A stretch of DNA of 64,000 bases from Candidatus Dormiibacterota bacterium (GTDB taxonomy: Bacteria > Chloroflexota > Dormibacteria > Aeolococcales > Aeolococcaceae). Under the pieces are notes generated by a model, which worked only from the letters and a program-made list of their open reading frames with translations, had not been told where the DNA came from and made no database searches. The stretch is taken from positions 16,288 to 80,287 of the forward strand of contig CAVPTG010000007.1 in the NCBI GenBank assembly GCA_963708605.1, given 5' to 3'. Shown here piece after piece: positions 1,955-49,855 of this stretch (positions within the stretch are counted from its first letter, which is position 1; each line of letters starts with the position of its first letter). The position numbers and the translations under genes are program-made.

Positions 1955-3475
1955 TTGTCTGAGACAGACCCGTCAGGAGCCGGTACCCACGCGAATTCTC
2001 AGGTCGGATCCGGAGACTTCGCGGCCATGGGCAGCCCCAACGTCAAGCTCAGCCGCCGGCAGGTGCTGGGCATCGCGGCCGGTGGGGTCGCCGGCGCCGT
2101 TGGGTTTCGGTACCTGACGCTGCAGCTCCCCGGCGGCTCGCGGCAGGTCACGCCGGCAGCGGGGACCGCCGGGTCATGGGCAAGCCCGCTCACCGGAGCG
2201 AGTGGCCGTGCCGCACACCTTCTGCGCCGAGCGACCTTCGGCTGCAACGCAGCGGAGCTCGACGCGGCGGCATCGATGCCGTATTCGGATCTGGTCGACA
2301 TGGTCATCAACCAGCCCGCCCAGGCGTTGCCAGCCGTGTCGAGCCCGACCAGTTACCAGGCGGTCGTTCGCGCCTGGTACCAGCACATGGCGACCACACC
2401 GGCGCAATTCGCGGAGCGGATGACGCTGTTCTGGCACGGGCTGCTCACCAGCGACTACCGCAAGGCCGCGCGCCTGCCCTTCGTGCTCCAGCAGAACGAG
2501 CTGTATCGATCCGCGGGACGGGGCGACTTCCGCACGCTGATCAACGCGGTCACGTACGACCCGTTGATGATTCGCTATCTCGACCTCGAGGAGAGCACCG
2601 CAGCCGCTCCCAACGAGAACTACAGCCGGGAGTTGATGGAGCTGTTCACGCTCGGCGCCGGCAACTACACCGAGACCGACGTGCGCGAGGGGGCGCGCGC
2701 GTTCTCCGGGATCCGGACCATCCTGGTGGACGCCACCGGCGGACGCCTGCAGCCGCCGAAGCTGAAGGGCTCGACGCCGGCGGCATATGCCCAGGCGGTC
2801 GAGCAACTCCTCTCCCAGGGGGCGACCTTCAAGGGGATCCTTGCGGGAGCCCAGCACGACGGTGGGAACAAGACGCTGCTCGGACACACCGGAAACCTCG
2901 GCCCTGCCGAGGCGCTGGACATCATCCTGGCGCAGCCCTCGTGCGCTCCTCACATCGCGCGCAAGGCACTGGTGGCGTTCTGCACGCCGAATCCGCCGGT
3001 GTCGCTCATCGACAGCGTGGCGACCGCGTTTCGCACCAGCAACTACGACATCAAGACGCTGATGCGCTCCATCTTCACCAGTGATGCGTTCACGTCACCG
3101 GACGCGTACCGGTCACTCGTGCGCGGTCCCGTCGAGTACATGGTCGCGACCATGCGAGCGCTCGGCAGGCCGGATCTTGCGGCATCGTGCGTGCGGTCGG
3201 GCGTGTCCATGGACCAGATCCTCTACGACATGCCGACGGTCGCGGGCTGGCCGTCCAATCAAGGGTGGGTGTCCTCGGGAGCGTGGCTGGCGCGTCTCAA
3301 CTTCGCGAACACGGTCGTGGCCACGCAGGGAACCTTCCCGGATCCGGCCGATGCTATACGCGTGCAACTCGACGGCGTCGTGGGGCCGGACACCGCCGCC
3401 GTCTTCAACGCGAGCCCGAGCGATGCCGATCGGTGGTACGCGCTGCTCGCCAGCCCCGAATTTCAGCTCAAGTGA
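1955..3475 (+). CDS. DUF1800 family protein with Tat-like signal
   Basis: LSRRQVL; HLLRRATFG, ERMTLFWH, PNENYSRELMELFTLG, C-terminal SPEFQLK. Confidence 0.85.
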   Translation: MSETDPSGAGTHANSQVGSGDFAAMGSPNVKLSRRQVLGIAAGGVAGAVGFRYLTLQLPGGSRQVTPAAGTAGSWASPLTGASGRAAHLLRRATFGCNAAELDAAASMPYSDLVDMVINQPAQALPAVSSPTSYQAVVRAWYQHMATTPAQFAERMTLFWHGLLTSDYRKAARLPFVLQQNELYRSAGRGDFRTLINAVTYDPLMIRYLDLEESTAAAPNENYSRELMELFTLGAGNYTETDVREGARAFSGIRTILVDATGGRLQPPKLKGSTPAAYAQAVEQLLSQGATFKGILAGAQHDGGNKTLLGHTGNLGPAEALDIILAQPSCAPHIARKALVAFCTPNPPVSLIDSVATAFRTSNYDIKTLMRSIFTSDAFTSPDAYRSLVRGPVEYMVATMRALGRPDLAASCVRSGVSMDQILYDMPTVAGWPSNQGWVSSGAWLARLNFANTVVATQGTFPDPADAIRVQLDGVVGPDTAAVFNASPSDADRWYALLASPEFQLK

Positions 3476-3486
3476 GGCAGAGCAAC

Positions 3487-4723
3487 ATGATCAGCAGACG
3501 CGACTTCATGGTGAGCGGTATCAGCGCAACCGGCGTGGGCATCATCGTGCCGCCGGTCTTCGCCAAGTCCGTGTTCGCCGCCACCATGGAGGATGTTCAC
3601 AACGACCGCGTGCTGGTGATCCTCCAGCTCGGTGGTGGCAACGACGGGCTGAATACCGTCGTTCCCTACGCGGATCCCGCGTATCTGCAGGCGCGGCCGA
3701 CGATCGGCATCCCTGCCGACAAGGTGCTGCCGCTGACTGCGGAGATCGGCCTCAACCCGGTGATGCCCGGCACGAAGAAACTCTTCGATGCGGGCGAGCT
3801 CGCGCTGGTGCAGGGTGTCGGATATCCGAACCCCGTCTATTCCCATTTCGAGAGTCTGTACATCTGGGAGCATGCCGACCCGACGATGCAGCAGAGCGAG
3901 GGATGGCTCGGCAAGTTGCTCGCCGGCCAGCTCGACGCCCAGGGACATCCGCTCACCGGATGTGCGCTCGGGCAGGCGAGCACGCCGCCTGAGCTGCTGG
4001 CCCAGAACGCGACCGTGAGCGTGATCGAACTCGATTCCCAGCTACCAGGTGCAGGGCGGTGACGGCCGGCGGGTCGCAGCACCGGCCCTGTACAAGCGGA
4101 CGCCGGGAATCTACGGCGCGCTCTACGACCAGGCGTTGAGCACCGCGGAGTATGGGATTGCCGCACTCGCCAACTCGCAGAGCCGCTACGCGCCCTCGGT
4201 CGCCTACACGCCTCAGAGCACGATGCACGGCACCAAGAACAGCCTCGCGACATCGCTGCAGCTGACTGCGGAGATGATCGTGACCCAGCCCAGCGTGAAG
4301 ATCTGCCACGTGGTGCTCGGTGGGTTCGACACCCATCAGGACGAGGACACGCGTCAGAACGCGCTGCTGGCCTACGTCGACAGCGCCATCAGCGCATTCA
4401 TGCAGGACATCGCCAACCACGGGATGGCGGACCGCGTGGTGCTCATGGCCTGGTCGGAGTTCGGCCGGCGGATAGCAGAAAACGGAGGTCACGGCACCGA
4501 CCACGGCGCGGCTGCACCGATATTCGTCGTGGGGAAGCCCGTCAAGGGTGGCGTCTTCGGCGAGCAACCCTCGCTCACCAGCACCGTCAACTCCGGAAAC
4601 CTGCAGTACAACATCGACTTTCGCAGCGTCTACCAGACGCTCATCCGTGACTGGCTGCAGGCCGATCCGGTATCGGTGCTCGGCGCGTCGTTCCCCGAGC
4701 TTCCCTTGCTCCGGACCGCGTGA
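3487..4723 (+). CDS. DUF1501 family protein with Tat signal (frameshift near 4040)
   Basis: MISRRDF; QLGGGNDGLN, GGFDTH, SEFGRR, GTDHG, DFRSVY; split over two frames. Confidence 0.8.
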
Positions 4724-8566: not shown

Positions 8567-9796
8567 CTATGCAGTCGAGGCCGTGATGATCGCGCGAGCG
8601 AATGCCGCGACCGACTGCTCGAGATCGGCGATCGTGTGCACCGACGAACAGAAGGCGCTCGTGTTGAGGATGTCGATGCCCTGGGCTCGCATCGCGTTCG
8701 CGATGCGCGCCTGGGCCCCGGGATCGCCCAGGAAGATGTGGAGGATGCTTGACAGCCGGCGGATGGTTCCAGGGATGCCGGCCGCTGCCAGCGCGGCGGT
8801 CCATTCGCCGGCGAGGCTCGTGGCATACGCTTCGGCCGTTCGCTGAGGGCTGCCGTCGGCGACCAGGCGGAGGGTCGCGATTCCAGCGGCCGCGCTCAGC
8901 GGGTTGGCGTTGAAAGTTCCCGGATGAGCGATCGTCGTTGCCAGCAGCTCGAGCAGGTCGGACCGCCCGGCAACCGCGCCTGAGGGCAGCCCGCCGGCCA
9001 TGACCTTGCCGAGGACGCTGATGTCCGGTGTGATCTCCAGCACCGCCTGCATCCCGCCGGGGGAGACGCGGAACCCGGTGACCACCTCGTCGAAGACGAG
9101 CACCGTGCCTGTCGCGGTGCATGCCGCCCGGGCCGCAGCGATGAATGACCTGTCGAGTGGCAGCTGGCCGTAGTGCGCGCCGGACGGCTCCATGATCACG
9201 GCCGCCACGTCACCTCGGGCGAGCTCCGCTTCGAGGGCCCCGGGATCGTCAGGACGGATCACCTTGGTCAGCTGCCCCATGGTCTCGGGGACGCCTACGG
9301 GCGTCCGTGTGTGGCCCTCCACATCGAGATACGGGCTGACGGCGTCCGACCAGCCGTGAAAGTGCTCCTGGATCTTGATGATGCGGTCCCTGCGGGTCGC
9401 CGCCCTGGCCACCCGCAACGCGAGCATCACGGCCTCGGTGCCGGATGCGGTGAACCGGACCTTCTCGGCCGACGGGACCAGCGAGACGATCTGCTCCGCC
9501 CACTCGACCTCGAGCGGATGGGCGGCGCCGTAGTGCGTGCCCCGGGACACCTGCTCCTGGACTGCCGCAACCACCGCAGGGTGCGCGTGCCCGAGGAGCA
9601 GGGCGCCGTGTCCCATCGTGTAGTCGATCAACTCGGTACCGTCGATCAACCACTTTCGCGAGCCGCTCGATCGAGCCACGTAGATACGGGGATCGTAGGT
9701 TCGCGAAGCGTGGGTGGCGCCGCCGGGAAGGACTCGTCGCGCCCGCTCGGCAAGGTCGGCGTGCGCGCGCGTGTGAACGGCGTCGGTCACGGACAC
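8567..9796 (-). CDS. Class III aminotransferase (GSA-aminomutase-like paralog)
   Basis: RFTASGTEA, FDEVVTGFR, GKVMAGG, GTFNANP. Confidence 0.88.
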   Translation of the reverse strand: MSVTDAVHTRAHADLAERARRVLPGGATHASRTYDPRIYVARSSGSRKWLIDGTELIDYTMGHGALLLGHAHPAVVAAVQEQVSRGTHYGAAHPLEVEWAEQIVSLVPSAEKVRFTASGTEAVMLALRVARAATRRDRIIKIQEHFHGWSDAVSPYLDVEGHTRTPVGVPETMGQLTKVIRPDDPGALEAELARGDVAAVIMEPSGAHYGQLPLDRSFIAAARAACTATGTVLVFDEVVTGFRVSPGGMQAVLEITPDISVLGKVMAGGLPSGAVAGRSDLLELLATTIAHPGTFNANPLSAAAGIATLRLVADGSPQRTAEAYATSLAGEWTAALAAAGIPGTIRRLSSILHIFLGDPGAQARIANAMRAQGIDILNTSAFCSSVHTIADLEQSVAAFARAIITASTA

Positions 9797-9815: not shown

Positions 9816-9889
9816 TGGAGGCGACGGTGGGAATCGAACCCACGATCAGGGTTTTGCAGACCCGTGCCTTACCACTTGGCTACGTCGCC
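9816..9889 (-). tRNA. tRNA-Cys (GCA), CCA encoded
   Basis: Reverse complement GGCGACGTAGCCAAGTGGTAAGGCACGGGTCTGCAAAACCCTGATCGTGGGTTCGATTCCCACCGTCGCCTCCA folds as a cloverleaf. Confidence 0.97.
9853..9889. repeat. Left attachment core, 37-bp direct repeat
   Basis: TTTGCAGACCCGTGCCTTACCACTTGGCTACGTCGCC identical to 24740-24776. Confidence 0.95.
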
Positions 9890-9933: not shown

Positions 9934-9956
9934 CTGACACCTTCCCTGACACCTTC
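9934..9956 (+). repeat. Tandem CTGACACC sites, putative integrase arm-type sites (left)
   Basis: CTGACACCTTC at 9934 and 9946, 12-bp spacing; matching pair at 24611/24623. Confidence 0.75.
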
Positions 9957-10033
9957 GTGCCCTGGAGTTGTAAGCTTCCCGTAGAAGAACCCCCGCACCG
10001 CTCGAACGGCCGGGGGCATGGCCAGCAATTGAG

Positions 10034-11267
10034 GTGCTGACAGTGACGCAGTCTACCGAACCCCCGCTCGACGAGACACCCTCGCCACCTTCAAGTAGTG
10101 GGCGCCGGCGTCCGACCCGACGTGATCCAGGTGACGGTTCGATCTTTCAGCGAACCGATGGCCGCTGGGTCGCGAGGCTCCGAGTTCCTCACGGCGCCGG
10201 GTCATCCCGCTATTTCTATGCGAAGACCAAGGGGGAGGCGAAGGTCCGTCTGGCCGAGGCGAAGCGAGCGATCGAGGACGGTCGGCCGCTGCCCGATCAG
10301 CGGGTCACCGTGGGCACGTACCTCCAGGTGTGGCTCGCCGGTTTGCCGGTTGGCACCGCCAAGGCGTCGACGATCGCCTATTACGAGAAGTACGTCCGCC
10401 TCCACATCCTCACGAGCGATCTGGCGAGGAAGCCGCTGGCGCGCCTCGATGCCGCCGACCTCCGGCGCCTGTACGCCGAGAAGCTCGCCGACGGGGCTGA
10501 GCTCCACCACGGTCCACCACCTGCACGCGGTCATCCATCGGGCACTCAACAGCGCAGTCGAGGACGGCAAGCTGTCGCGCAACGTCGCGTCGCTCATCGG
10601 TCGAAGCAATCGCCCGAAGGTCGCCCGGAGGGAGATGGTCACTATCGCCAATGGCGACCAACCCCGCCGGTTCCTCATCGCTGCCAAAGGCGAGCGGCTC
10701 GAGGCGCTCCTGGTGCTCGCGCTCACGACCGGACTGCGCAAGGGCGAACTGCGCGCGCTGCGCTGGAAGGACGTGGACCTCGACCGCGGCGTGCTGGCTG
10801 TCCGCGGCTCGCTCATGGGCACAGCCAGGGCGGACATGGCGATCGGCACGCCGAAGAATGGCAAGGAGCGCGCCGTGTCGCTCGGGTCGACCGCTGTGAC
10901 AGCCCTCGGCGACCATCGGGCGCGTCAGCTCGAGGAGCGCAAGGTTGTGCCGATCCGTGGTGACCTCGGACTGGTGTTCTGCACTGAGTGGGGCGAGTTC
11001 CTACCCACGAACACCATTGTGCTCGCGCTTGAGCGGGTGCTCGCGCGCGCCGGCCTTCCGCACATTCGGTTCCATGACCTTCGGCACACTGCCGCCACCC
11101 TCATGCTCCAGCAAGGCGTCCATCCGAAGATGGCGTCGGAGATGCTCGGACACAGCAACGTGGCGATCACGCTCGACCTCTACTCGCACATCACGCCAAC
11201 GATGCAGCGCCAGGCCGCGGACGCCATCGAGCGCGCGCTGACCGACCCTCTCGTGATCCGATCGTAG
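10034..11267 (+). CDS. int: Tyrosine integrase (frameshift in GGGG near 10495)
   Basis: GDGSIFQRTDGRWVA arm domain; TGLRKGEL, FHDLRHTAAT, LGHSNVAITLDLYSH catalytic motifs. Confidence 0.93.
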
Positions 11268-11284: not shown

Positions 11285-11662
11285 ATGCGGTATCAGCAAC
11301 CCGGGTCGAGCCCTGAGATCGATTCCTCAGAGATCGAAATCCCCGACGAGCGCGACTGGGGCACCGGGAGTTTCACGACGAACTTTTTGCCGTCCGCTCT
11401 AACAGCGACCAAGGCCATTTTCTCCGTCATGGCGAACCCTCCCACGTTCTTCATAACCGCGACCATGGGCGTGGGCGGCGACATCATCGCCGTTCTCGGC
11501 GAAGTGGACGGCTCGACCGGCAAAGATCACCGGGTGTTCCTTCTTCCCAGGAATCTCGACCCGGAGCCAGCTCATTCCCTAGTCATTCACTTCAAGGATT
11601 GGCGTCTCGTTCAGGCCGATCTTGACGGCGTCTACCTAGCCACCAAGACCACGACCACATAG
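11285..11662 (+). CDS. Hypothetical cargo protein
   Basis: 125-aa ORF with normal protein composition downstream of int. Confidence 0.55.
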   Translation: MRYQQPGSSPEIDSSEIEIPDERDWGTGSFTTNFLPSALTATKAIFSVMANPPTFFITATMGVGGDIIAVLGEVDGSTGKDHRVFLLPRNLDPEPAHSLVIHFKDWRLVQADLDGVYLATKTTTT

Positions 11663-11667: not shown

Positions 11668-13891
11668 TCACGATGGCGAACTGATGTCCAGGCCACCACG
11701 GATAGGGGTCATGCGGTGGTTTCCAGCCACTAACTGCCGCCGAAGATCGAGGGGATCGACCCCGCGCGTTTGAGGGTGAGCAGCTGATTGCGCATCTGCT
11801 TGGCGGTCGCCTCTGGACTCTGCGCGCGCCGGGATGTGGAAGTGGATACCGCCGTTCACGTTGACGCCGCCGCCCCCGCCGCCGTTCGGGGCGACGCTGG
11901 CGATGTTGATCCCGTTGCCGCCGGCCAGCGCCTGCTTGATGATCGAGCCCGTCTGGTTGTAGGCCAGGCTCGTCCCCACCGCTCGGGCGTCCGCGATGAT
12001 CCCCTGGATCAGCCCTGCGGCCCGGATCGCGTCGGCGGTGGCGTTGCGGGTGGCGATGATCTCCGCGGTCATGGCCGCGTGGTAGTCGCGCATGTCCTGC
12101 TGAGCGGTGTCAGTGCCCCGCTTGACCGCCTCGTTGTATGCCTTGATCCTGGCGAGACGGTCGTCCTCCTCCCTCTGCAAGGCGAGGTTGCGCCAGTTGT
12201 TCGGACCACCGCGACCGGTCCCAGCGCCTCCTGCGCCAACCCCCTCCCCGGGCTTAGTGGTATGCCCTCCGGTCAGGATGTTGTAGAAGTCGAAGAGAAC
12301 CCCGCCGGCGACGACCGCGCCAGCCGCGACCGTCACGCCGCGCTGCGATCGATCCGCCGCCGCCGGCACCTTCGGCCGCGTTCACAGCCCCGCTCCCGGC
12401 ACCGCCGCCGCCGGCCATCATTTCCCAGTTAGTGACGAACACCCGCTGACCGGCCGCGGACGAGGCGGCACCGAGCACACCCCCGCCGGACGAGGACGAG
12501 CTGCCAAGCCCGGTGATCGCATGGAGGAGGTTCCCCGCGACGTTCCCGGTCAACAGGGTCTTCAAGTCGCCGAGCACGCTGCCCGCGGCCGTCTTGATCT
12601 TCGCTCCCGCCCAGAGCGCGGTCATGGTTCCTGCGAAGGCTTCGAACACAGTCTTGTGGTCGACGATGAAGCCGATCACATCCTTCACCGGGGGATACAG
12701 GTCGTTGGCGATGAAGCTGCCGGCGTCCTGCGCCGCGGTGCCGAGGAATTGCACCGCGTTGACCGCGAAGCTCTCGATCTGCGCCTCGTGGCCGCTCACC
12801 CACTTGGCGATGTTGTCGAGCCCCGGGAGCAGCGCCTGGCCCGGCCACCCGAGCGACGCTCTGCATGTCCGCGCCCATGGTCGCGAACGGATTTGCCGGC
12901 CACATAGGACGATGCGGCCGCCCCCCACGTGCTTCTCGATCGGTGGTCGAGCGACGCTGCGGGCAGGTTGCGCGAACTGGTTCGCTCATCGCCTTGGTGT
13001 CGGTGGCTCACCTTCAGGGTCGCTAGCATCGAGCTTCTCGTGCGCGGCGATCGTGCTGTGCGCGCTGCCCTGTCCGTATTTGTCGAGCAGCAAGCTGATA
13101 CGCCTGCTGCGCCTTCTCCGCAGCCGCCGTTGCGCTGTTGAGCGCCGTCATCTTGGGGACGATGGTTGGCAGGATGATGCCCAGGTCCTGCAGCCCTCGT
13201 CCCTGTCCTTGGGTGGCTGTTGAGCAGGTCATCCATGGACGTGCCGAGGTCCGAGACGCCATCAGCAGAGTTTGCATCGCGCGAGGTCGCGGCGATCCAT
13301 GTCACTGGCGCCGCATCTGCTCGGTCGACCGGGATGCGTGCCTGGTGCGAGCTTCAGCAGGGCTGCGTGGTTGACTCGGTCCTCGATGAATCCGACGTGC
13401 GGCCAGCTTGTCCAGCAGTGAGCGTCGATCGGCTGCATCGGTAACCCGAGCTAGGTGGTAGCGCCTGCATGCTTCGGGCTCTGCAGTGCGGTCCGGCGAA
13501 TGCCGCCCCATTTGCGTCGTCGTATATGCCTGCGGCGATGAGGATCATCGCTGCTGGACTGCAGCCGCCTTCACGCCCTCGGCCGCCCTGCGGCCCCGCC
13601 AAAGAGCGCGCCGATCCCGGCGGTCTGGCCGACCATGGAGACGCATGCCGCCGAGCGCGCCCTTGATCGAACTGCCAACGCTTGCCGAATGCCTTGTCGA
13701 GCAGGGAGACGTTCTTCACGCCCTTGCCGCCGATCTCGCTCTCCGCAGCCTTGCCGATGCCGCCCATGCCGCCGCTCACATTGCCGAGCCGCGAACTCCA
13801 GGGATCCGGCGGCGGCCTCACCCTCGCCGGCGGCACGGACCAGGCCGGCGGATGAGCCGGTGATGTCGACAAAGAATTACTCTATGGACAT
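11668..13891 (-). CDS. Phage tail tape-measure-like protein (multiple frameshifts)
   Basis: Stitched frames: VDITGSSAGLVRAAGEGEAA..., GLQDLGII, ALLPGLDNIAKWVSGH..., GQRVFVTNW, GGGVNVNGGIHFHI; Ala/Gly-rich helical composition; about 740 codons. Confidence 0.65.
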
Positions 13892-14116: not shown

Positions 14117-14482
14117 ATGGCAATCGTACCCTGTGACCCCGTCACATCACCCGCCGCTGGTATCGGCGCGCCGTTCGCAGCATGGCACCGTGACGGGGGG
14201 TGTGACACAGCACGTGACCCCCTCACACCGAGCTGGACCCGCCAGCGTCTGGAGCGTGTCGCGCGACGTCATGGCCTGCAGCTCGTCGAGACGAGGCATC
14301 GCTGGAGCGAGGCCGACGGCGGGGGCGAGGGCGGATTCGGGCTCGTGGATTGGGAAGGTGGGGTGATCGCCTATGGCGGCGGCCTTCCCTGGCCGGGCGC
14401 AACCCTCGAGGAGGTCATCGACTTTCTGCATTCGCCGGAAGCCGAGGCGAAGGTGTGGAGGATGGAGAACTGGGGTCTGTGA
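14117..14482 (+). CDS. Hypothetical protein
   Basis: ATG after GGAGGA; in frame with ORF 14033-14482; stop overlaps the recombinase start. Confidence 0.55.
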   Translation: MAIVPCDPVTSPAAGIGAPFAAWHRDGGCDTARDPLTPSWTRQRLERVARRHGLQLVETRHRWSEADGGGEGGFGLVDWEGGVIAYGGGLPWPGATLEEVIDFLHSPEAEAKVWRMENWGL

Positions 14483-15525
14483 CCTCAGTCAAGAGGCGCA
14501 GGCGGGCCCGAATGGGCCCGCCACATCCCCGGGCCACGCGACCCAGTGCCGGCGCAGTTCGGCACCTACCTTGAGTGGCTGAGTGTCGAGCGCAACCGTC
14601 CCCGCACGACCGTCCGCACCTACCGGCAGGATCTCGCGAAATTCGTGGCGTTCCTGTCGACCACTGTCGACCTGCGCAGTCCTGACGTGCTCGAGGGCGT
14701 CGACCGGGCGGTGCTTCGGCGCTATCAGATCGAGCTCGCCGACGTGCTGCCCAATCCACGAACGCGCAACCGTTCCCTGGTGGTGCTGCGCAACTTCCTC
14801 CGCTTCGCCTATGACGAGGGTTGGACCGACGAAGGAGTTGAGCCGGCAGGTCACCCTGCCACGCTTCGTGATGGGCGACCCGCACCCGATCCCCACCGAA
14901 GACGTTCCAAAGCTGCTCGCCGCGTTGCCGAAGCGCAACCTGCGTGACCAGCGTGACCGGGCACTGGTGGCCTTCCTGATGGCGTCCGGCTGCCGCATCG
15001 CCGAGGCGCTGGCGCTGAATCGCGGCGACGTGCGCGCCGACGGCTTCCGCGTGCTCGGCAAGGGTGGAAAGCATCGAACCGTATACGTCACCGCGGCGGC
15101 ACTGGCGACGGTGCGCGAGTATCTGCGCCGGCGGGGTCCGGATCTGTCGCCGGCTCTGTTCATCAGCCTTGCGCGGAAGGACGTCTTTCAGGGTGTGCAG
15201 GCGGACAATCGGCTGACAGACAGATGGCGCCAGGAGGGCCGTGGCGGCGCTGCGCGGCCGGATGAGCACCGATGCCGAGAGCTTCCGGCTGTGGAGGGGC
15301 TTGCATTCGCCTCACGTCGCGCGTCACACCGCGGCGACCACGCTCCTCGAGGCGACCGACGGCGACGTGCGCCTGGTGCAGGAAGTCCTCGGCCACGCGT
15401 CGCTCTCGACCATGCAGATCTACACCGAGATCACCGACAAGCGGAAGAAGGAGGCCTATCGCCGGCTGAGCGCCTACCTCACCGGCGTCGCCAACCCTGA
15501 ACACCAGTCCGGCGCGCATCGATGA
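14479..15525 (+). CDS. Second tyrosine recombinase, XerC/D-like (2-3 frameshifts)
   Basis: [23 protein letters not shown] (SAM-like), [49 protein letters not shown]. Confidence 0.85.
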
Positions 15526-15785
15526 GCGTCCAGTGGAACCCGGAGCCAGGCGCGACGTTGCCATGGTGGCTCACCGAGGAGCTGCCGGCCGGGACAGGGA
15601 CCGCGATGGTGCGGTGTCTCGCCGTTCTCGCGGCGTTCCTTGCTGACGAGCTCGCGCTACCAGCAGGGACAGTGCCCGCGCTGCTGCGCGCAGCTCTCGA
15701 CGACTACAGCCGGTCGGATGGGCCGATGGGCGTCGAGCGTGGTCTGTTGAGCGTGTATGACGCTGTGCGCGCCGCCTTCGGTTAG
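15522..15785 (+). CDS. Hypothetical protein
   Basis: ATGA overlap with the recombinase stop. Confidence 0.6.
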
Positions 15786-15997
15786 CGGACTGATGTTCGG
15801 CCGAGGTGGCTTATGGAAACGGGGGTCGTTACGGTGGCTGGGCTGCTGAGCCCGCCGTACACCGGGCCACCGACGTAGGCCGGCATCAGCACGGCCTGGT
15901 GCGGTGGCGCGGGCTGGAGAACGATGGCGAGCCCGATTGCGATGCCGAGCGCCACTGCTGACAGGATGGCCAGCCGGAGCGCGTTCACCTTCCTCAC
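15782..15997 (-). CDS. Small single-TM protein (leaderless)
   Basis: MRKVNALRLAILSAVALGIAIGLAIVL; TATACT 7 nt upstream of GTG. Confidence 0.65.
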   Translation of the reverse strand: MRKVNALRLAILSAVALGIAIGLAIVLQPAPPHQAVLMPAYVGGPVYGGLSSPATVTTPVSISHLGRTSVR

Positions 15998-16073
15998 GGG
16001 GCTGAGTATAGAAGGCCCGCGAACACGACCGCCGAGGTTGCTATGGGCTCAGCTCTGACCCGACAATGGGCGG

Positions 16074-16229
16074 GTGAGAGCTTGGGTCATCGTGCTCGCT
16101 CCGCTGCTTGCGCTCGCTGTCCTCGGCCTGGCGCTGCATATGGTCACACGATGGGAACTCGCGGTCTTTGCCGCGGCCTTCGGTGTGCTGGTCGGCACGA
16201 CGCGAGTGCTCGATCAGAAGTTGAGGTAA
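16074..16229 (+). CDS. 51-aa two-TM microprotein (below ORF-track cutoff)
   Basis: MRAWVIVLAPLLALAVLGLALHMVTRWELAVFAAAFGVLVGTTRVLDQKLR; GACAAT 6 nt upstream of GTG. Confidence 0.6.
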   Translation: MRAWVIVLAPLLALAVLGLALHMVTRWELAVFAAAFGVLVGTTRVLDQKLR

Positions 16230-16239
16230 GGCAACCCGG

Positions 16240-16410
16240 TCAGCGTTTCCCCGGTGCTCTCACATCGGGCGCGTAGACCGCGATCCCCAGAAGCACCACG
16301 AGCAATGGCCATGGCAGCCCGAAGGGCCGGATGCGCAGGATCCAGAGGATCACCGACAGGAGTAGGAGCGCTCCCACGATGGGCCAGCGTCCCTTCTGGA
16401 GCCCAAGCAC
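16240..16410 (-). CDS. 56-aa two-TM microprotein (below ORF-track cutoff)
   Basis: MLGLQKGRWPIVGALLLLSVILWILRIRPFGLPWPLLVVLLGIAVYAPDVRAPGKR; CACACT 7 nt upstream of GTG. Confidence 0.6.
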   Translation of the reverse strand: MLGLQKGRWPIVGALLLLSVILWILRIRPFGLPWPLLVVLLGIAVYAPDVRAPGKR

Positions 16411-16425
16411 ACGCGCAAGTGTGCG

Positions 16426-16974
16426 CTAGCAGGCAGGGTCACCGCCAGGATTGTGCGAGAGCAGCGGCATGGTCCAATACTGATTGCCACCAGCACCCTG
16501 GTTGGTCAGGAACGATCCATAGCCGTAGTTGTCCACGATCGCGACCGCCGGGTTGCACTCCTGACCATCGGGTCCATTGCCGTTGTAGAACGGACTGTAA
16601 TAGGCGCCGTGGTTCTGCGCCCCGGCCGGGGTAATGCCTCCAAATCCGCTCTGGTAGTACACCGGATTGGTATTGACCCCCGGCCAGTCCTCGAGCGTCA
16701 CGGCGCTGTTGGTGTTATCCATGTCGTTGTCGGAACTGGTCCATTCCATTCCGACCAGCGTGTTGTTGATGCAGATGCCCGAGTGGTTGACCCATTCCTC
16801 AAGGTAGACGTAGACCTGCCCGCTGCCGTAGGGGAAATGGCCGGCCTGCGCTGTGCGGGTGAAATTGTTGAGGTTGGTGCAACCGTTCGCCGAGGCGATC
16901 TTCGGCGATCCGATGGCGAAGGCCGACACCGTTCCGAGGATGGCAACCGTCAGGAGCGCGAGGCGTCGTTTCAC
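16426..16974 (-). CDS. Secreted Asn/Gly/Tyr-rich protein
   Basis: Signal peptide MKRRLALLTVAILGTVSAFA...ASA; four Cys in the mature part. Confidence 0.75.
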   Translation of the reverse strand: MKRRLALLTVAILGTVSAFAIGSPKIASANGCTNLNNFTRTAQAGHFPYGSGQVYVYLEEWVNHSGICINNTLVGMEWTSSDNDMDNTNSAVTLEDWPGVNTNPVYYQSGFGGITPAGAQNHGAYYSPFYNGNGPDGQECNPAVAIVDNYGYGSFLTNQGAGGNQYWTMPLLSHNPGGDPAC

Positions 16975-17017
16975 TCCCCGACGTTGCGATCAGGCCGAAC
17001 TTGCCCCGTTCACGCGC

Positions 17018-18066: not shown

Positions 18067-18322
18067 CTACCAGAGCGGCTGCCAGTGGGCGCCGGCGTCG
18101 CCGACGGGATTCGTGCCCTTGAGGCCGGAGACCTTGGTCACGTAGACGTGCCCGTCAGACCCGGTGGCCTGGGCGCCGAGCGCGTAGCTGATCGATGCGC
18201 TCCATGTGGCAACGTCCTGGTGGACAACCGCGAACTGCTGTGTTCCGTCAGGCCAGGTCGGCTGACCCGAGATCGGGCGCAAGAAAGATCGTTCCTGTCG
18301 GTGCCGATGTCGGCGTGGTCAT
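18067..18322 (-). CDS. Small protein with CBM5/12 (ChtBD3)-like domain (frameshift near 18283)
   Basis: WSASISYALGAQATGSDGHVYVTK...NPVGDAGAHWQ aromatic spacing. Confidence 0.55.
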
Positions 18323-19607: not shown

Positions 19608-19805
19608 ATGGGAAGGCTTCTGCGGCAGATCGGCATCGCGACGCTGATGACGGCCGTCGTCGTCGTGCCGATGGTTGTCTTGGGCCCGCGGCCCGCGCGT
19701 CCGGAACCTGACGTCATTGCACCTTGCCGTTCGCCCAACAGGTCGCTCGGATCGCCGCGCCCCCGACCTTCACGGCCACGCCGAAGCGCGCCAGCGCCCT
19801 CGTGA
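19608..19805 (+). CDS. Small single-TM protein, paralogous start to 19444
   Basis: MGRLLRQIGIATLMTAVVVVPMVVLGP...; CATGAT 7 nt upstream; C-terminus may be frameshifted. Confidence 0.5.
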   Translation: MGRLLRQIGIATLMTAVVVVPMVVLGPRPARPEPDVIAPCRSPNRSLGSPRPRPSRPRRSAPAPS

Positions 19806-19806
19806 G

Positions 19807-20355
19807 GTGAACCGGCTGCTCGCGGGTCTAGCCATCTCCGGAGCGGCGCTCGCGGCGGCGAGTTGCAGTCCTGGAGGCACGACGGTCAATAGCCCGTCGA
19901 CGCCCGACACATCGACATCCAAACCAGCCGCGGCGTCGGCTCACGTTGGCGCCACGCTAACGCTGAATGGCCTCACCTCCGAGAAGCTGCAGATCACCGT
20001 CGTGAAGCTGGTCGACCCAGCACCGCCGTCCAGCCAGTTCGAGGCCCCGCCGGCTGGCACTCGCGAGATTGCGCTCGAGATCCGCTACAAGAACATGGGC
20101 ACCGTGACCTACAACCAGAGCATCCTCACCGACATCACGGTGGTCGACAAGGGCTCACACGACTTCAGCGTCGATCTCGCCTACGACACCTCTGCCGGCC
20201 CTGGCTTTCCGAGCGACAACGTCGACATCGCGCCAGGCGAGACCGAGGACGGTTTCGTGCCCTTCCAGGTCGAGACGGCATCAGTGATCAGCGAAGTGAA
20301 AATTGGCCTCGACGAAGGCTTCGGGCCAGATACCGGCGAATGGCTGGTCCCGTAA
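19807..20355 (+). CDS. DUF4352-like lipoprotein
   Basis: Lipobox-like LAAASC; VGATLTL...KLQITV...YKNMG...IAPGETEDGFVPFQV Ig-like fold pattern. Confidence 0.75.
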   Translation: MNRLLAGLAISGAALAAASCSPGGTTVNSPSTPDTSTSKPAAASAHVGATLTLNGLTSEKLQITVVKLVDPAPPSSQFEAPPAGTREIALEIRYKNMGTVTYNQSILTDITVVDKGSHDFSVDLAYDTSAGPGFPSDNVDIAPGETEDGFVPFQVETASVISEVKIGLDEGFGPDTGEWLVP

Positions 20356-20725: not shown

Positions 20726-21642
20726 ATGGCTATGACGACGGGTTCGACTGGGAACGCCAGATGGACGGTTGAGTTCGCGCGGCGACTTGCGCTCGTGCGT
20801 TACACGCTGCAGCTCGCTCAGGACCAAGCAGAGATCGCCATCCCCTCCACGCCCCGGCACTCCTGCTGATGCACGATGCCGCCGAACTCTTCCTCGTCCT
20901 TGTCGCCCAAGCATCGGACGCCGACGTCAAGAGCAGCATGGAGTTCCTGGCTTACTGGGACGTGATCGACACAAAGCTAGCGCCGGACCAACTCGGGCAC
21001 AAAGCCGAGATGGCTGCGATCAACAAGGCCCGTGTGGGGTTCAAGCACTCTGGTGTCATACCCAGCAGAGCCGAGATCCGACGCTTCGTTGCGATGACAC
21101 GCTCGTTCCTCGAGGACGCGACGCCGACCGTCTTTGGAGTTGCCCTCGATCAGGCGACGTTGGTCGACCTCGTTCCGTCCGCAGCAGTGCGCACTGCGCT
21201 CCAAGAGGCGGAGGCCGCAATCGCGGCAGGTGATGTGGCGACTGCCATGGGAAGGGCGCGGGTCGGATTCGAGTTGAGCTTGCGCGAAGACGATGAACGT
21301 GTCCGTCAGGCCACAGGCAGTCATCCACTCCGGATCACCGCCGCACATCTGCCCTCGGCCTTCTCGTTGAGCCTCCAGAAACTCCACGGCCAGTTCGGGC
21401 TGGCATGGGACGACCTGATCGCGGTAGTGAAGCGGACGGATGATGCCGTGCGCTTGATGGCGAAGGGCATCGATTACGCCGACTACATGCGCTTCGCGGC
21501 ACTCACGCCGCATCCCTTCTGGTCGTACGGACGCGACGAGCCGACTTTGATCAGCGGCGCCTCACAAGCCGCGGCGACGATCGACGACGCGCGCTGGGCC
21601 GTGGACTTCGCGATCCGCTCCGTGCTGATCGTCCTCGGCTGA
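20726..21642 (+). CDS. HEPN-like protein, candidate defence/toxin (frameshift near 20835)
   Basis: RRLALVRYTLQLAQDQ..HPLHAPALLLMHDAAELFL ... INKARVGFKH (R-x4-H). Confidence 0.55.
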
Positions 21643-21647
21643 GCGAT

Positions 21648-21671
21648 GAAGGTGTCAGGTTTGGGTGTCAG
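21648..21671 (-). repeat. Internal inverted copy of the tandem CTGACACC site pair
   Basis: Reverse complement CTGACACCCAAACCTGACACCTTC versus 24611-24633 CTGACACCCAACCTGACACCTTC. Confidence 0.85.
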
Positions 21672-22306: not shown

Positions 22307-23251
22307 TCATCCGACCGGTGGCACCGCTGCGCGCATCCGCTGAGTGACATAGCGGTCGTACGCGACGAGCGCCGCTTCGAATCGAGGTCGATCACGAAGG
22401 AACGTCGCATCTCGGATCGCCTCCTCGAGGTCTGCGAGAGGTCGATCGGCGAAGAAGATATCGGGTCGATCCCTGACGATCGCCCTGCGCCGGCGGAGTT
22501 CTCGGAGTGCGAGTATCGCCATTCGATCACTCCACGCCTCGTCGGTCGCCTGTGCGTGCTCCCTGCCCTTCTGCGCTGGCCGTCGGCGATGGTTTGCGCT
22601 CGGCGGTGGTCCTCGGCTTCCATCCACCCGGGTGGCAAACCTTGCCCTGATGGCTCTGGCACGCCGGCGACGCGTCGACACTCATCGATCGCGGTTCGCA
22701 TATCGACGTCCTTGGTCGGTTTCTGATCGCCTCCAGCATCCTCGGATGCGTCGTCGCCTCTGATCAGACTCTGATCTAAAGATCTGTTATCAGATCTGTT
22801 AAATAGGAACCGTAGGCGTTTCGTCCATGGTCGGTGGATGATTCGCCCATGGTTGAGGGACGGAATTACCACGGTCGAAGCCAGGATCGCCCATGGTCAC
22901 CTGGGCGGATCGCCCATAGTCACCGTGGGAGTTTCGACCATGGTTAGGGGAACTCCTGAACCGATCGATATTGTCGCGAAGTGCCTCGACGCGGATGCGA
23001 TATCTCGACGGATTGGATCGCGATGTGCCGCGCTGGTACTCGAGCTCACCGAGCCTTTCTAGGTCGTTGATCCCGAGGTTCGCAGTCTTGCGATCGAGCC
23101 GCGCCAGCCAGGCGATGCGGTCGAGCGACGCGTGCGTCCAGCCATTCTCGTTCCTGTTGCCGAGCGCCGCGATCGCCTGACCCACCAGGTAGGCGCGGTG
23201 CTGAGCGTTGCTGCGCGCTTGGAAGAGTTCGGTTGTCTTCCAATCGCTCAT
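22307..23251 (-). CDS. Phage-type replication initiator (N-terminal wHTH, iteron linker; frameshifted)
   Basis: ASLDRIAWLARLDRKTANLGINDLERLGELEYQRG...RYRI; repeats inside the gene. Confidence 0.65.
22759..22945. other. Putative replication origin: iterons plus AT-rich region
   Basis: CCAYRGT cores at 22825, 22847, 22869, 22891, 22914, 22938; AGATCTGTTA twice (22780, 22792). Confidence 0.7.
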
Positions 23252-23583
23252 TGCAGCCAGCCCTGAGCATCGAGGATCCGCAAGATGCGGCTCCATTGTT
23301 CCAGGTCGATGACCACGTAGGCGCTCGAGATGCTGGCGCGCCTGCGCTTGAAGATGACGCACCACCAGCGGGCGCCGGCGTTCTTCGCTTCCTTCTCGGC
23401 CTCGGCGACTGCGCGACCCATCTCCATGACGCCGGTGTTCTTGAGCTCCATGCAGACGTTCGGGATGCCGGCCACATCGCCGCGGTCGAGAGAGCCGCCC
23501 ATGACGCGCCGCTCCGCCTTGTCCCAGCCCTCCGCCCGGAGGTAAGCGATCACGTCGGCCTCGAATTTCGGCCCGCGCTTCAT
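23248..23583 (-). CDS. Phage Holliday-junction resolvase-like PD-(D/E)xK nuclease
   Basis: GPKFEADV...DRGDVAG...MELKN...FKRR. Confidence 0.75.
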   Translation of the reverse strand: MKRGPKFEADVIAYLRAEGWDKAERRVMGGSLDRGDVAGIPNVCMELKNTGVMEMGRAVAEAEKEAKNAGARWWCVIFKRRRASISSAYVVIDLEQWSRILRILDAQGWLQ

Positions 23584-23972
23584 GCCGGCTCGCCTGACAT
23601 GGCTTCGCGATACAGCTCGCTGAGACGCTCACGACTGACGCCAAGGGCCTCGGCGACTGTGACGAACGCCTCCGCAACTTTGACGTCAAGCCGTCCTCGA
23701 AGTTCGCAGCACCGCAACAAGCCAAGGACGACAGATGCGATCTCGCCGCTCGGCTCGAGGGCGCCATCTACCTTGAGTTCGGCCTGCCAAAGGGTAAGCG
23801 CGCCCACGGCAAGGCGAAACAGGCGGTCGTTCTCACGGACGGCAGCTGCGATCCGGTCGGTACGTTCTGCCGGGCCGTATATCCAGTCGGGATCCCAGTC
23901 CGGTCCGGGGGCAGCCTCGTCGTCCGTGGGATGATCGATGTGTTGATCGCGGTGGGCGGCGGCATCTTTCAT
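23580..23972 (-). CDS. Hypothetical protein
   Basis: ATGA overlaps on both sides. Confidence 0.65.
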   Translation of the reverse strand: MKDAAAHRDQHIDHPTDDEAAPGPDWDPDWIYGPAERTDRIAAAVRENDRLFRLAVGALTLWQAELKVDGALEPSGEIASVVLGLLRCCELRGRLDVKVAEAFVTVAEALGVSRERLSELYREAMSGEPA

Positions 23973-24193
23973 GTGGTGTCGCTGCCTCCCGGCCCTTTCG
24001 TCGACCGGAGCCGCTCGAGATACGCGCGGAGCGACGACTCGACGACACGCGTCGCCCGAGCGCCGAGGGAAACCGCCTCAAGCTCCCCGCGGCCAACCAG
24101 TCGCCACGCCTGGCGTTCGGAGATTCCGAGACGCCGCCCAGCCTCACCGACGGACACCAGCAGAGGGGGCTCGAGAACTGTATGGGTGTTCAT
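23969..24193 (-). CDS. Excisionase/AlpA-like HTH protein
   Basis: LLVSVGEAGRRLGISERQAWRLVGRGEL. Confidence 0.85.
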   Translation of the reverse strand: MNTHTVLEPPLLVSVGEAGRRLGISERQAWRLVGRGELEAVSLGARATRVVESSLRAYLERLRSTKGPGGSDTT

Positions 24194-24267
24194 CGCGACC
24201 TACCCTGCCAGTGGGTGCCTGTTGCCCCTACGCGGTGTGGAAATGGGCGCCAAGCCGTCGTCCATCG

Positions 24268-24516
24268 CTATCCGTGGTCGGGGAGTTCAGCCTGGACGCG
24301 CTCCGCGATATAGCTGCTGACACTGCTCGCCGGGATGCGCCGCAGCCGGCCGACGTGAATCGAACTGAGGTCGCCGGCGACGATCAACCTCCAGACGAAC
24401 GAGCGGCTGCAGCCGAGCATCTCGGCCACCTCCACATCACGCAATAGCCGGTCGGGCGCGGCCAGAGTTGGGGCGGTCGCTTCCAAAGGTTTGTCTCCTT
24501 GCGCTGCTGTGTGCAA
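24268..24516 (-). CDS. Excisionase-like HTH protein
   Basis: LLRDVEVAEMLGCSRSFVWRLIVAGDLSSIHVGRLRRIP. Confidence 0.85.
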   Translation of the reverse strand: MHTAAQGDKPLEATAPTLAAPDRLLRDVEVAEMLGCSRSFVWRLIVAGDLSSIHVGRLRRIPASSVSSYIAERVQAELPDHG

Positions 24517-24610: not shown

Positions 24611-24633
24611 CTGACACCCAACCTGACACCTTC
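24611..24633 (+). repeat. Tandem CTGACACC sites, putative arm-type sites (right)
   Basis: CTGACACC at 24611 and 24623, 12-bp spacing. Confidence 0.75.
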
Positions 24634-24739
24634 GTCAGTGAATGCGCCGCAACGCCGGTGGACGCGACAGGCTGTCTAGGCGCTTGTTTCGTATTCGGGA
24701 GACACTCTCTGCAACGTCTGTGGACGGTACAAACCGGAC

Positions 24740-24776
24740 TTTGCAGACCCGTGCCTTACCACTTGGCTACGTCGCC
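24740..24776. repeat. Right attachment core; displaced 5' half of tRNA-Cys
   Basis: 37-bp exact match to 9853-9889. Confidence 0.95.
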
Positions 24777-24844
24777 CCGTGACCTGGAATGCGCCATTGT
24801 CGCCGAAGAACCCGCGCGCGCCTCACCGAGGCCGCGGCATGGGG

Positions 24845-25393
24845 TCACGCCGCCGAAGTTTGCGCGGCACCGTCGGCACCCGGCTCGGGCGGCATCACGA
24901 ACCCGACCTCGAGCGCGCTTGCGAGAGCACGCAGGCGCGCGTAGAACCCCGCGGTGTGCGGCGAGCGGGGGAGGCGGAGGCCGGCGAAATCATGGTGGTG
25001 CTCCCATTCATGGAGCAGCGTGTTCAGGAAAACCTTGGTGCTGATGACCTGCTGGCGCACAGCCGTCTTGTGATAGATGCGGATGCGAGCGGTCTTCACG
25101 GCGCCCTCTGCAAACGTGCAGCGGTAGTAGCCGTAGGTCTTGCTCTGCAAACGCTGTCCGTTGTGTGAATGCACCTGGGCCCGATCGGCGACAACAAGGT
25201 CGCAATGGGGGAGACGCGCAAGAGCGTCGAGCTCGTCGATGAGAAGTTGTCCGAGCCGTTTGCGCTCCTGCGGATCCTCCGACGAGTCGATGATCCGCAG
25301 GGCGAGCCCACGCGCGATCGGACTTGGTTGCACGGGGAGCCCGGTGCTGCTCTGGCTCCGGCGATAGGTGGCATCGGGGCGGCGACCGAACAT
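24845..25393 (-). CDS. HExxH zinc metalloprotein, SprT-like
   Basis: FLNTLLHEWEHH...SPHTAGF; ATG 25393 downstream of TATACT. Confidence 0.65.
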   Translation of the reverse strand: MFGRRPDATYRRSQSSTGLPVQPSPIARGLALRIIDSSEDPQERKRLGQLLIDELDALARLPHCDLVVADRAQVHSHNGQRLQSKTYGYYRCTFAEGAVKTARIRIYHKTAVRQQVISTKVFLNTLLHEWEHHHDFAGLRLPRSPHTAGFYARLRALASALEVGFVMPPEPGADGAAQTSAA

Positions 25394-25482
25394 CTGCTCC
25401 AGGAGTATACGGCCGTCCTCGAGGGCGCAGCCCGGACAGTCGCGGCCGGGTCGAACGCGACCACGACCCATAGAATCCTGGT

Positions 25483-29057: not shown

Positions 29058-29071
29058 GCTGCTCGCTCCTC

Positions 29072-49847: not shown

Positions 49848-49855
49848 TCAACGAC

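Follow-up and report, generated by a model that had tools for sequence, protein, structure and literature searches.

By its sequence, the locus at 11730-13891 (minus strand) is a real relative of phage tail tape-measure proteins, and it is unreadable as sequenced. It is probably a siphophage-type tape-measure relic, located in a 14.9-kb defective prophage at the tRNA-Cys gene of the window (the whole stretch of 64,000 nt of Candidatus Dormiibacterota DNA analysed here). Because the gene is unreadable and stands alone in a phage-derived island, it most likely represents a leftover of phage DNA rather than a device that works. As it stands, the object is an ordinary one, a phage island in decay in which a tail gene has been left stranded. 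It puts on record both DNA of phage origin and integration at tRNA-Cys for the little-known Dormiibacterota lineage. The coordinates of all features are given in Table 1.

Table 1 Features of the tape-measure relic, its surroundings and the tRNA-Cys island (positions in the window).
Feature	Position	Strand	Evidence or remark
tRNA-Cys (GCA), intact; its 5' 37 nt (9853-9889) are the attL core	9816-9889	-	ARAGORN, Rfam, repeat
Tandem CTGACACCTTC motif	9934-9958		Recurs at 24611-24635; inverted at 21645-21664
Integrase beside attL, one extra base at 10496	10034-11267	+	PF00589, E = 2.7e-27
125-aa gene, no assigned function, intact, convergent with the relic	11285-11662	+	Homologues
Tape-measure-family gene relic	11730-13891	-	Frameshift-aware alignment to P0001/P0003 and A1 profile
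3' part of the relic, two isolated frameshifts, each one extra base	11796-12340	-	Near 12337; within 11796-11832
Motif GGVNVNGGIHFHI	11833-11871	-	Sequence read
Motif QRVFVTNW	12425-12448	-	Sequence read
Indel-dense patch (954 nt), 23 of at least 25 frameshifts	12842-13795	-	Profile alignment
Motif FFVDITGSSAGLVRAA	13829-13876	-	Sequence read
In-frame TAA, codon 5 (M-S-I-E-stop-F-F-V-D-I-T-G)	13877-13879	-	Sequence, translation, profile alignment
7-bp inverted repeat, 5-nt loop	13917-13935		Within a 225-nt divergent intergenic region
121-aa gene, no assigned function, intact, divergent from the relic	14117-14482	+	Homologues
Second tyrosine recombinase (XerC/D-like), in three frames	14546-15525	+	PF02899 and PF00589 on three pieces; PHROG integrase, NCBIfam
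HNH/restriction-endonuclease-like phage gene	17544-18050	-	phrog_8790, E = 4.2e-34; phrog_374, E = 4.5e-34
Phage-family gene, no assigned function	19651-20352	+	phrog_806, E = 6.9e-10
Phage-family gene, no assigned function	20773-21639	+	phrog_37995, E = 4e-20
RusA-like Holliday-junction resolvase	23251-23628	-	phrog_244, E = 5.6e-20
Excisionase/HTH-like small gene near attR	23972-24199	-	phrog_66 (two genes: E = 6.8e-6 and 7.6e-7)
Second excisionase/HTH-like small gene near attR	24271-24516	-	phrog_66 (two genes: E = 6.8e-6 and 7.6e-7)
Right copy of the 37-nt repeat (attR core), 14887 nt from the left copy	24740-24776		Repeat search

The relic spans 2.16 kb (2162 nt) and would have ~712 codons if read through. 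It starts with an ATG at 13889-13891, and its ancestral stop is found at 11730-11732, just after ...MRNQLLTLKRAGSIPSIFGGS. An end at 11668 had been proposed in the sequence-only reading, but this is where an out-of-frame extension ends. From the ATG onward the locus was colinear with six metagenomic proteins of 528-709 aa, full or partial, and is therefore a real gene relic and not a product of chance. The three motifs on which the sequence-only reading had relied were all recovered on the minus strand, each in a different frame. Its impression of an Ala/Gly-rich protein was also borne out, with 17% Ala and 15% Gly in the frame-corrected translation. Hydrophobic segments were computed near residues 78-96 and 477-505 of the homologue P0001. 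No tandem repeats were present within the relic. Tape measures, which are long, mostly alpha-helical proteins that sit as trimers along the inside of the tail tube, follow a rule of 0.15 nm of tail per residue, by which ~712 aa would correspond to a tail of roughly 105 nm.

The close family consists of metagenomic proteins of 660-709 aa. Three of the homologues (P0001, P0002 and P0006) were apparently full length, with matching N- and C-termini. Others, from other data sets, looked broken: P0004 and P0005 had out-of-frame tails, and P0003 was cut at both ends. Fragments were found as well (P0011, P0012 and P0014). A profile of six close homologues (A1) detected 1523 proteins at E <= 1e-3, among them P0015 (about 1e-44) and P0016 (about 1e-41), both of which exceed the curated cut-offs of PF10145 and TIGR01760. 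In their N-terminal 195 aa, P0001 and P0016 shared 41% identity (E = 4e-22); the motif FVDITGSSAGLI.AAGEGEAA was conserved there, and a second block was colinear. P0016 matched 95 phage records and, among the matches listed, ten out of ten were annotated as tape measure. PHROG families for “tail length tape measure protein” were matched by 28 of 40 sampled relatives (E <= 1e-5), being the top match for 27 of these 28. A 33-sequence profile (A3) matched solved tape-measure chains (9m8o_M, 4e-17; 6v8i_CF, which is 80alpha gp57, 5.7e-15; 9g8s_w, 5.7e-13) and, at weak E-values, also coiled-coil proteins, e.g., viral fusion proteins. The A1 profile gave nothing against solved structures at E <= 0.1.

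Direct matches to curated families were few. None of five window pieces matched Pfam, neither of two matched NCBIfam, and one of five matched the PHROG tape-measure families weakly (phrog_973, E = 5.5e-5; phrog_1272, 8.6e-3). Intact homologues behaved similarly, with no Pfam match (0/4) and weak PHROG matches for two of the four. The nearest outgroups, P0007-P0009, had no PHROG or Pfam family match. Membership among the tape measures therefore runs through transitive links. The tape-measure likeness claimed in the sequence-only reading stands at the level of the superfamily, to which this homology chain supports assigning the gene; a direct match was lacking in Pfam and NCBIfam, and weak in PHROGs. 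By tblastn, two window pieces and P0001 had no match in 50,697 phage records, and one window piece had none in 72,556 plasmid records; a complete phage carrying the exact close family was not seen among the same 50,697 phage records. The family alignment gave 43 pattern matches in GTDB representative genomes, none of them confirmed, and 11 proteins of the family and its flanks had no tblastn match in 80 retrieved loci. Together, these proteins define a divergent tape-measure family, recognised by no curated profile at present.

The closest known counterparts are the TP901-1-type tape measures (PF10145 PhageMin_Tail, TIGR01760; solved: 80alpha gp57, PDB 6v8i). Their N-terminal region is homologous to that of the family via P0015 and P0016, and the likeness extends to Ala/Gly richness and hydrophobic segments. 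In contrast to them, the close family does not pass any curated profile; it is also short compared with most relatives and lacks a lysozyme/peptidase domain, whereas Phage_lysozyme2 was found in 5 of 40 relatives. The copy in the window is in addition broken, and lacks chaperone, tube and distal tail genes. The canonical order is seen in Rossellomorea phage phiT1, where the genes share one strand and the related Tmp follows the major tail protein and the tail assembly chaperone, with a tail fibre gene coming next.

An exact direct repeat of 37 nt, corresponding to the 5' half of tRNA-Cys, marks both borders of the island, and a tyrosine integrase lies next to one of them. The CTGACACCTTC repeats are candidate recombinase arm sites. 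Relative to related genomes the island is an insertion. It was missing from all three related Candidatus Dormiibacterota contigs with enough flank (L001, L003 and L071), in which the tRNA-Cys adjoins a homologue of window positions 24830-25565 with no island between. Contigs L002 and L074 end too near the tRNA to judge, and L074 has an integrase-like stretch there. The nearest genomes were Candidatus Dormiibacterota MAGs, in which the flanking aminotransferase was 89% and 87% identical at the aa level. No non-coding RNAs other than tRNAs were found in the island with Rfam.

Both recombinases of the island carried frameshifts as well. In the integrase the junction reads ...LYAEKLADG / LSSTTVHHLH..., and the second recombinase is broken at 14828-14831 and between 15227 and 15301. 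The HNH-like gene had tblastn matches in 866 phage records and no match in Pfam; the phrog_37995 gene had no tblastn match in phage records. Three PHROG families without assigned function were represented in the island.

Phage-family genes occurred in the island without essential virion genes. Among 172 stop-to-stop ORFs (37 + 135) between 13.5 and 26.6 kb, PHROGs recognized no terminase, portal, capsid, tail-tube, chaperone or baseplate, a result that is based on profiles, which very divergent virion genes could escape. Such virion genes were not found between 9.9 and 11.7 kb either. The sole tail-related match among the 172 ORFs was a weak one to a tail fibre (E = 1.5e-4, 18070-18318), and with this exception the gene is indeed without neighbouring tail genes, as the sequence-only reading had it. 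Nor does it occupy the canonical tape-measure position, which has the chaperone pair on one side and distal tail or tip genes on the other, with all of them in one orientation. Upstream of the relic lie the divergent 121-aa gene and a recombinase, downstream the convergent 125-aa gene and the integrase. Primase/rep, small terminase, capsid/scaffold and packaging-redirection families were not detected among the island ORFs. PADLOC gave no match for 28 of 29 proteins, and for the remaining one, an xis-like HTH, a weak match to mad1 (E = 2.8e-4); a defence system was therefore rejected as a reading of the island.

The sequence-only reading had noticed coding sequence across several frames. The frames do change, but the damage had been understated: no uninterrupted reading frame is present in the given sequence, in which codon 5 is a TAA and the frameshifts number at least 25. 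At codon 5 the homologues have Ser or Glu, and the TAA is a substitution, not an indel. The frameshifts were strongly clustered, with 23 of 25 falling within 954 of 2162 nt (binomial P = 6.7e-7). Over the whole profile alignment, 17 events had one extra base and seven had two extra bases. Homopolymer slippage was rejected as their source, because no frameshift site lay in a homopolymer run and the homopolymer content of the patch was no higher than that of its flanks. By eye, no shared sequence motif was seen at the 23 patch sites. The isolated frameshifts of measured size all had a single extra base, outside homopolymers. After frame correction, the identity of the patch to outgroup homologues was only ~4 points below that of the intact P0003, and its GC3 was 0.82. 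For comparison, 34 chromosomal ORFs beyond the island borders were examined. Where Pfam matched, the ORF mostly spanned the profile end to end, and one likely frameshift was found, in a DUF1501 gene.

Natural bacterial pseudogenes are deletion-biased, and their substitutions far outnumber indels. The pattern of the dense patch looks more like consensus error than natural decay, since excess substitutions are nearly absent and most of the events add one base at a site outside any homopolymer. A large part of the 23 frameshifts there may have arisen as consensus artefacts rather than by mutation. Such error-like indels call for caution before gene calls in the 954-nt stretch are trusted.

In the reading that we prefer, a prophage would have entered the tRNA-Cys gene, in its 5' half, by site-specific recombination of a tyrosine recombinase. 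The island would once have been a complete phage. It appears to retain the integration and excision ends (integrase, xis-like genes, 37-nt att cores and arm motifs) and early-type phage genes (RusA, the HNH-like gene and the three PHROG families), and would have lost every part of the head and tail module that once surrounded the tape-measure gene. The tape-measure gene is presumably not expressed. It would now be functionless and, if intact, would still be without tail tube, chaperone and tip complex. Cryptic (defective) prophages are known at tRNA genes, with examples in E. coli K-12. The island is like them in its tRNA-borne att repeat, in having its integrase and its xis-like genes at opposite ends, in its scattered phage genes, lost virion modules and frameshifted genes, and in its absence from relatives. 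It differs from them in its host, from an uncultured phylum, in its cargo, most of which is without known family, in a second internal recombinase and in the unusual frameshift density of the 954-nt patch.

Two other explanations bear directly on the frameshifts. The gene could be intact in the organism, with the patch, and perhaps also the isolated insertions, including those in the recombinases, being consensus errors. The island would then be a satellite or “hitcher” of ~15 kb that has its own tape measure, takes capsid and tail from a helper, and may re-set the tail length of the helper or block its assembly. We regard this as rather unlikely. Clustered, insertion-biased and non-homopolymeric indels, atypical of natural decay, would be explained by it, as would the near lack of excess amino-acid divergence and the corrected GC3 of 0.82. 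The full-length-looking homologues and the flanking small genes, intact and conserved elsewhere, fit it too, and the island size, att sites, integrase and xis-like genes suit satellite dimensions. P0006 and P0164, the latter a homologue of the 121-aa gene, both had a longest listed contig of 14568 nt. This length, near that of the island (14887 nt), is a hint that the element is small and conserved rather than the product of a one-off deletion, although we infer the presence of both on one contig solely from the equal figure. Speaking against this reading, the TAA at codon 5 is no indel, no replication initiator or capsid-remodelling family was found in the island ORFs in addition to the missing primase, small terminase and packaging-redirection families, and no PADLOC family was convincingly matched. 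Alternatively, the locus may be a genuine pseudogene, in which the patch reflects a real local insertion-prone process, or the recombination of an older 5' with a younger 3' segment. The one-extra-base lesions elsewhere in the island, the TAA at codon 5, and the broken look of P0003, P0004, P0005 and the three fragments would agree with this, but it is distinctly unlikely. An older 5' segment should show excess divergence, which was not observed, and at the sites of an insertion-prone process neither repeats nor homopolymers nor a common motif stand out. Insertions would also be needed at ~2.4% of sites without substitutions, and no mechanism for such single-base insertion is known to us.

A function for the island as a satellite is unsupported, since genes that mark satellites, for replication or packaging redirection, were not recognized in it. 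Phage satellites comprise classes such as PICI, cf-PICI, P4-like and PLE. The island resembles them in its size of ~15 kb, its integrase and att sites, its xis-like and HNH-like genes and its incomplete virion set; it differs from them in having no recognisable replication or packaging-redirection genes and in a tape-measure gene that is unreadable as sequenced. To our knowledge, which does not come from an exhaustive literature search, no satellite carrying a tape measure has been described. It is highly improbable that the frameshifts are errors and that the island belongs to a conserved family of ~15-kb helper-dependent elements of soil bacteria, with their own tape measure and no other virion gene. 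If true, these would be the first satellites to alter helper tail length or assembly via a substitute tape measure; the locus bears on the use of helper tails by satellites only if the gene is intact and the island architecture is conserved. The sequence-only reading had imagined a copy that replaces or poisons the tape measure of a helper, with a change in tail length or entry, which found no support in a gene that is untranslatable as sequenced. Its other suggestion, anti-phage interference, likewise gained none, as there was no convincing PADLOC match among the 29 proteins. A known case of tail-assembly block via the tape-measure protein, the kind of interference imagined in the sequence-only reading, is the tail assembly blocker Tab of Pseudomonas phage JBD26, for which the tape measure of an invading phage is the recognised target (PMC10884400). 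Tab is expressed from a prophage and acts on a tape measure; it is not itself a spare one. The island differs from it also by having no defence-family match apart from the weak mad1. Finally, the family may not be a phage tail protein at all, but instead belong to an integrative element, as a membrane-associated protein rich in Ala and Gly (for example a conjugation or secretion component) that is similar to tape measures only by composition and coiled coils. This would suit the close family without a direct curated-profile match, the weak coiled-coil matches of A3 and the absence of tail genes nearby. It is extremely improbable, given the 195 aa aligned to the TIGR01760- and PF10145-passing P0016 with their conserved motif, which go far beyond composition, and conjugation or secretion families were not found in the island.

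In the immediate surroundings of the relic, the upstream hairpin (GCCACGC/GCGTGGC) pointed out in the sequence-only reading is present, but at chance level. Stems of 7 bp of this kind numbered 56 in the window, versus a mean of 49 in 20 shuffles. The hairpin was outside the minimum-energy fold, the region folded no better than shuffles (z = +0.45), and no promoter-like or terminator-like site was found at the hairpin. A role as regulatory element was rejected on the basis of stem count and folding. The convergent gene noticed downstream is real and intact. It had no family in Pfam, PHROG, NCBIfam or PADLOC, and four homologues with 75-89% identity, the three named ones all being “hypothetical”. 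The 121-aa gene on the other side of the relic also had four homologues, with 54-78% identity.

The tape-measure-like relic is a single former gene on the minus strand (13891–11730) whose reading frame passes through all three frames, in a window of ~67% G + C. Its anatomy was derived from frameshift-aware DNA alignment to two metagenomic homologues (P0003 and P0001) and to a six-homologue profile, plus motif mapping. The six homologues, proteins of 528–709 aa with 54–73% identity, were retrieved with the longest open piece (12254–12928). Their colinearity with the locus extends from the initial M-x-x-E-x-F-F-V-D-I-T-G to the terminal ...R-N-x-L-L-x-L-x-R-R-G-A.... All three motifs quoted in the sequence-only reading are present within the relic. 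The lower boundary proposed there, 11668, is merely the end of an out-of-frame run-on beyond the ancestral stop. As given, the sequence is untranslatable beyond codon 4.

Features of the relic and of the island around it (window positions)
Feature	Position	Strand	Remark
Relic start codon ATG	13889-13891	-	
In-frame TAA, codon 5	13877-13879	-	Ser or Glu at same position in homologues
Motif FFVDITGSSAGLVRAA	13829-13876	-	
23 frameshifts	between 13795 and 12842	-	
Motif QRVFVTNW	12425-12448	-	
Single frameshift	near 12337	-	
Motif GGVNVNGGIHFHI	11833-11871	-	
Single frameshift	within 11796-11832	-	
Ancestral stop	11730-11732	-	
Integrase	10034-11267		adjoins tRNA; PF00589, E = 2.7e-27; one extra base at 10496
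Intact 125-aa gene	11285-11662		between integrase and relic
Intact divergent 121-aa gene	14117-14482	+	upstream of relic
Second XerC/D-like recombinase	14546-15525		spread over three frames
Small membrane and secreted ORFs			after second recombinase, before HNH-like gene
HNH-like gene	17544-18050		
Genes of PHROG families 806, 37995, 3678			between HNH-like gene and RusA
RusA	23251-23628		
Two xis-like genes	23972-24516		adjoin right repeat

Profile searches against tape-measure families, one of the checks named in the sequence-only reading, succeeded through intermediate relatives, but not with the relic's own pieces in Pfam (0/5) or NCBIfam (0/2); in PHROG, one piece matched tape-measure families weakly (phrog_973, E = 5.5e-5). 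Four intact homologues gave no Pfam family, and two of them weak matches to PHROG tape-measure families. No match to relic pieces or P0001 was found by tblastn among 50,697 phage or 72,556 plasmid records, and the six-sequence profile alone matched no solved structure.

The same profile retrieved 1523 proteins (E ≤ 1e-3), and 40 of the 150 best were sampled for family tests. PHROG “tail length tape measure protein” families were matched by 28 of the 40 (E ≤ 1e-5), as top match in 27; the remaining 12, including the three nearest relatives (P0007–P0009), had no PHROG match. Four sampled relatives matched PF10145, two of them above the cut-off, and five had a phage tail lysozyme domain. These two, P0015 and P0016, which clear the PF10145 cut-off, also pass TIGR01760. 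The latter is 41% identical to P0001 across the first 195 residues (E = 4e-22), a region with the motif FVDITGSSAGLI.AAGEGEAA, and a second block is colinear. P0016 matches 95 phage records, with a tape-measure annotation in 10/10 of the matches listed. A 33-sequence family profile matched the solved tape-measure chains 9m8o_M (E = 4e-17), 80alpha gp57 (6v8i, E = 5.7e-15) and 9g8s_w (E = 5.7e-13). Judged by sequence, the direct evidence for tape-measure identity is thin and the transitive evidence strong, so we file the family as a putative divergent branch of the tape-measure superfamily.

The island holding the relic has at its borders an exact 37-nt direct repeat (9853–9889 and 24740–24776, copies 14887 nt apart), which is the 5' half of tRNA-Cys. 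Five related contigs were compared with the window. In the Dormiibacterota contigs L001, L003 and L071 the tRNA-Cys directly adjoins the homologue of 24830–25565, with no island, and the window therefore carries an insertion relative to these relatives. Contigs L002 and L074 stop too near the tRNA to be informative; L074 has an integrase-like stretch there. The flanking aminotransferase (8567–9796) shares 89% and 87% identity with genes on two Candidatus Dormiibacterota MAG contigs. Relative to this gene, the tRNA-Cys is inverted in L003 (8669–8740) and L071 (7984–8055), the two more distant contigs, against the window (9818–9889), L001, L002 and L074. The CTGACACCTTC motif lies near both island ends (9934–9958, 24611–24635), with an inverted copy inside (21645–21664); these repeats may be candidate recombinase arm sites.

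A PHROG scan of 37 + 135 stop-to-stop ORFs (13.5–26.6 kb) and, separately, a Pfam scan covering 54 ORFs (15.2–31.2 kb) found no terminase, portal, capsid, tail tube, chaperone or baseplate, the only tail-related match being a weak one to a tail fibre (E = 1.5e-4). The relic therefore really stands alone, and its description as a lone tape-measure-like gene was right, by transitive homology and by the lack of neighbouring tail families. In a phage with a distant relative, by contrast, the gene follows the major tail protein and chaperone and precedes the fibre.

The 121-aa protein shares the motif TRQRLERLA.R.GLQLVETRH...GGFGLVDWE with its homologues P0161–P0164. One homologue is named from an Acidimicrobiales MAG and another occurs on 24 contigs that reach 135 kb in length; the gene may mark a widespread mobile element. 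At 15785–16989 (minus strand) lie three small membrane-like ORFs and, after them, a 182-aa protein (16426–16974) with a signal-peptide-like N-terminus. None had a family match; given where they lie, in an island derived from a phage, they may be a lysis or surface cassette.

The lesions are unevenly distributed: 23 of the 25 frameshifts fall in 954 of 2162 nt (binomial P = 6.7e-7), none inside a homopolymer, and 17 of 24 in the profile alignment are a single extra base. Isolated frameshifts of measured size (10496; 14828–14831; 11796–11832; near 12337) are all one extra base; the other break in the second recombinase was bracketed only, between 15227 and 15301. Natural bacterial pseudogenes are biased to deletions, and their substitutions far outnumber indels. 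The pattern departs from this neutral-decay expectation, which limits the pseudogene call, and consensus error, e.g., where noisy or mixed reads cover a segment common to related phages, fits better. After frame correction the patch (12842–13795) is barely more diverged, its identity to five outgroup homologues lying ~4 points below that of intact P0003 (0.60/0.64, 0.61/0.66, 0.58/0.62, 0.66/0.70, 0.64/0.68), and it keeps a third-position G + C of 0.82. Two observations speak against an exclusively technical cause: the TAA at codon 5 is a substitution, and the chromosomal genes outside the island with Pfam matches mostly span their profiles end to end. The one likely frameshift seen in a chromosomal gene there is in a DUF1501-family gene (3085–4723, plus strand), seemingly split into two frames near 4030–4060, the Pfam match in its second ORF spanning profile positions 229–345 only.

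As for origin, the simplest account is that a temperate siphophage inserted itself into tRNA-Cys and that its virion module subsequently disappeared by deletion or rearrangement, with the internal second recombinase cassette as candidate agent. The tape-measure gene would have been left stranded. Because there is no tube, chaperone or tip complex and no translation past codon 4, the relic most likely does not work. A role for a standalone tape measure, by replacing or poisoning that of a helper or by anti-phage interference, is unsupported, and the island has no defence family. The nearest known form of such interference, Tab, is described in PMC10884400 as a prophage protein that recognises the invader's tape measure and blocks tail assembly, unlike a spare tape measure.

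The longest contig listed is 14568 nt both for the tape-measure homologue P0006 and for P0164, a length similar to that of the island. If the two share one contig that is the whole element, islands of this type could be conserved small elements instead of a one-off remnant. This coincidence leaves a satellite reading with a low probability; against that reading, the island has neither a defence family nor recognisable replication or packaging-redirection genes. The island is of an ordinary kind, and the relic adds a new, divergent member to a known kind of gene, of low significance unless the gene is intact in reads and the architecture conserved in homologue contigs. In a full-text literature search pairing Dormibacterota and prophage, neither term appeared in titles or abstracts of the matches.

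The hairpin reported upstream of the relic exists, but at chance level: the window has 56 such stems versus a mean of 49 in shuffles, the hairpin is absent from the minimum-energy fold (z-score of the region +0.45), and no promoter-like site was found in the hairpin region. A regulatory role was rejected on these grounds.

Elsewhere in the window, ARAGORN called a 90-nt tRNA-Arg(GCG) at 26591–26680 (plus strand) that stays below the gathering score of the Rfam tRNA model and could be a miscall or a decayed gene. A tetrapyrrole-synthesis run (46700–52958, plus strand) comprises GlutR_N (glutamyl-tRNA reductase), porphobilinogen deaminase, ALAD and a class-III aminotransferase, with a cyclophilin-domain ORF separating the last two. 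The window has four class-III aminotransferase genes in total (8567–9796, 27771–29213, 34305–35675, 51621–52958). A 723-codon open frame (29075–31243, minus strand) lies antisense to the entire FAD-oxidoreductase gene (29927–31240, plus strand) and has real domains (MerR, HTH_3, Cupin_2) in its last ~250 codons only (about 29090–29835); it is an example of the long spurious antisense ORFs in this G + C-rich DNA.
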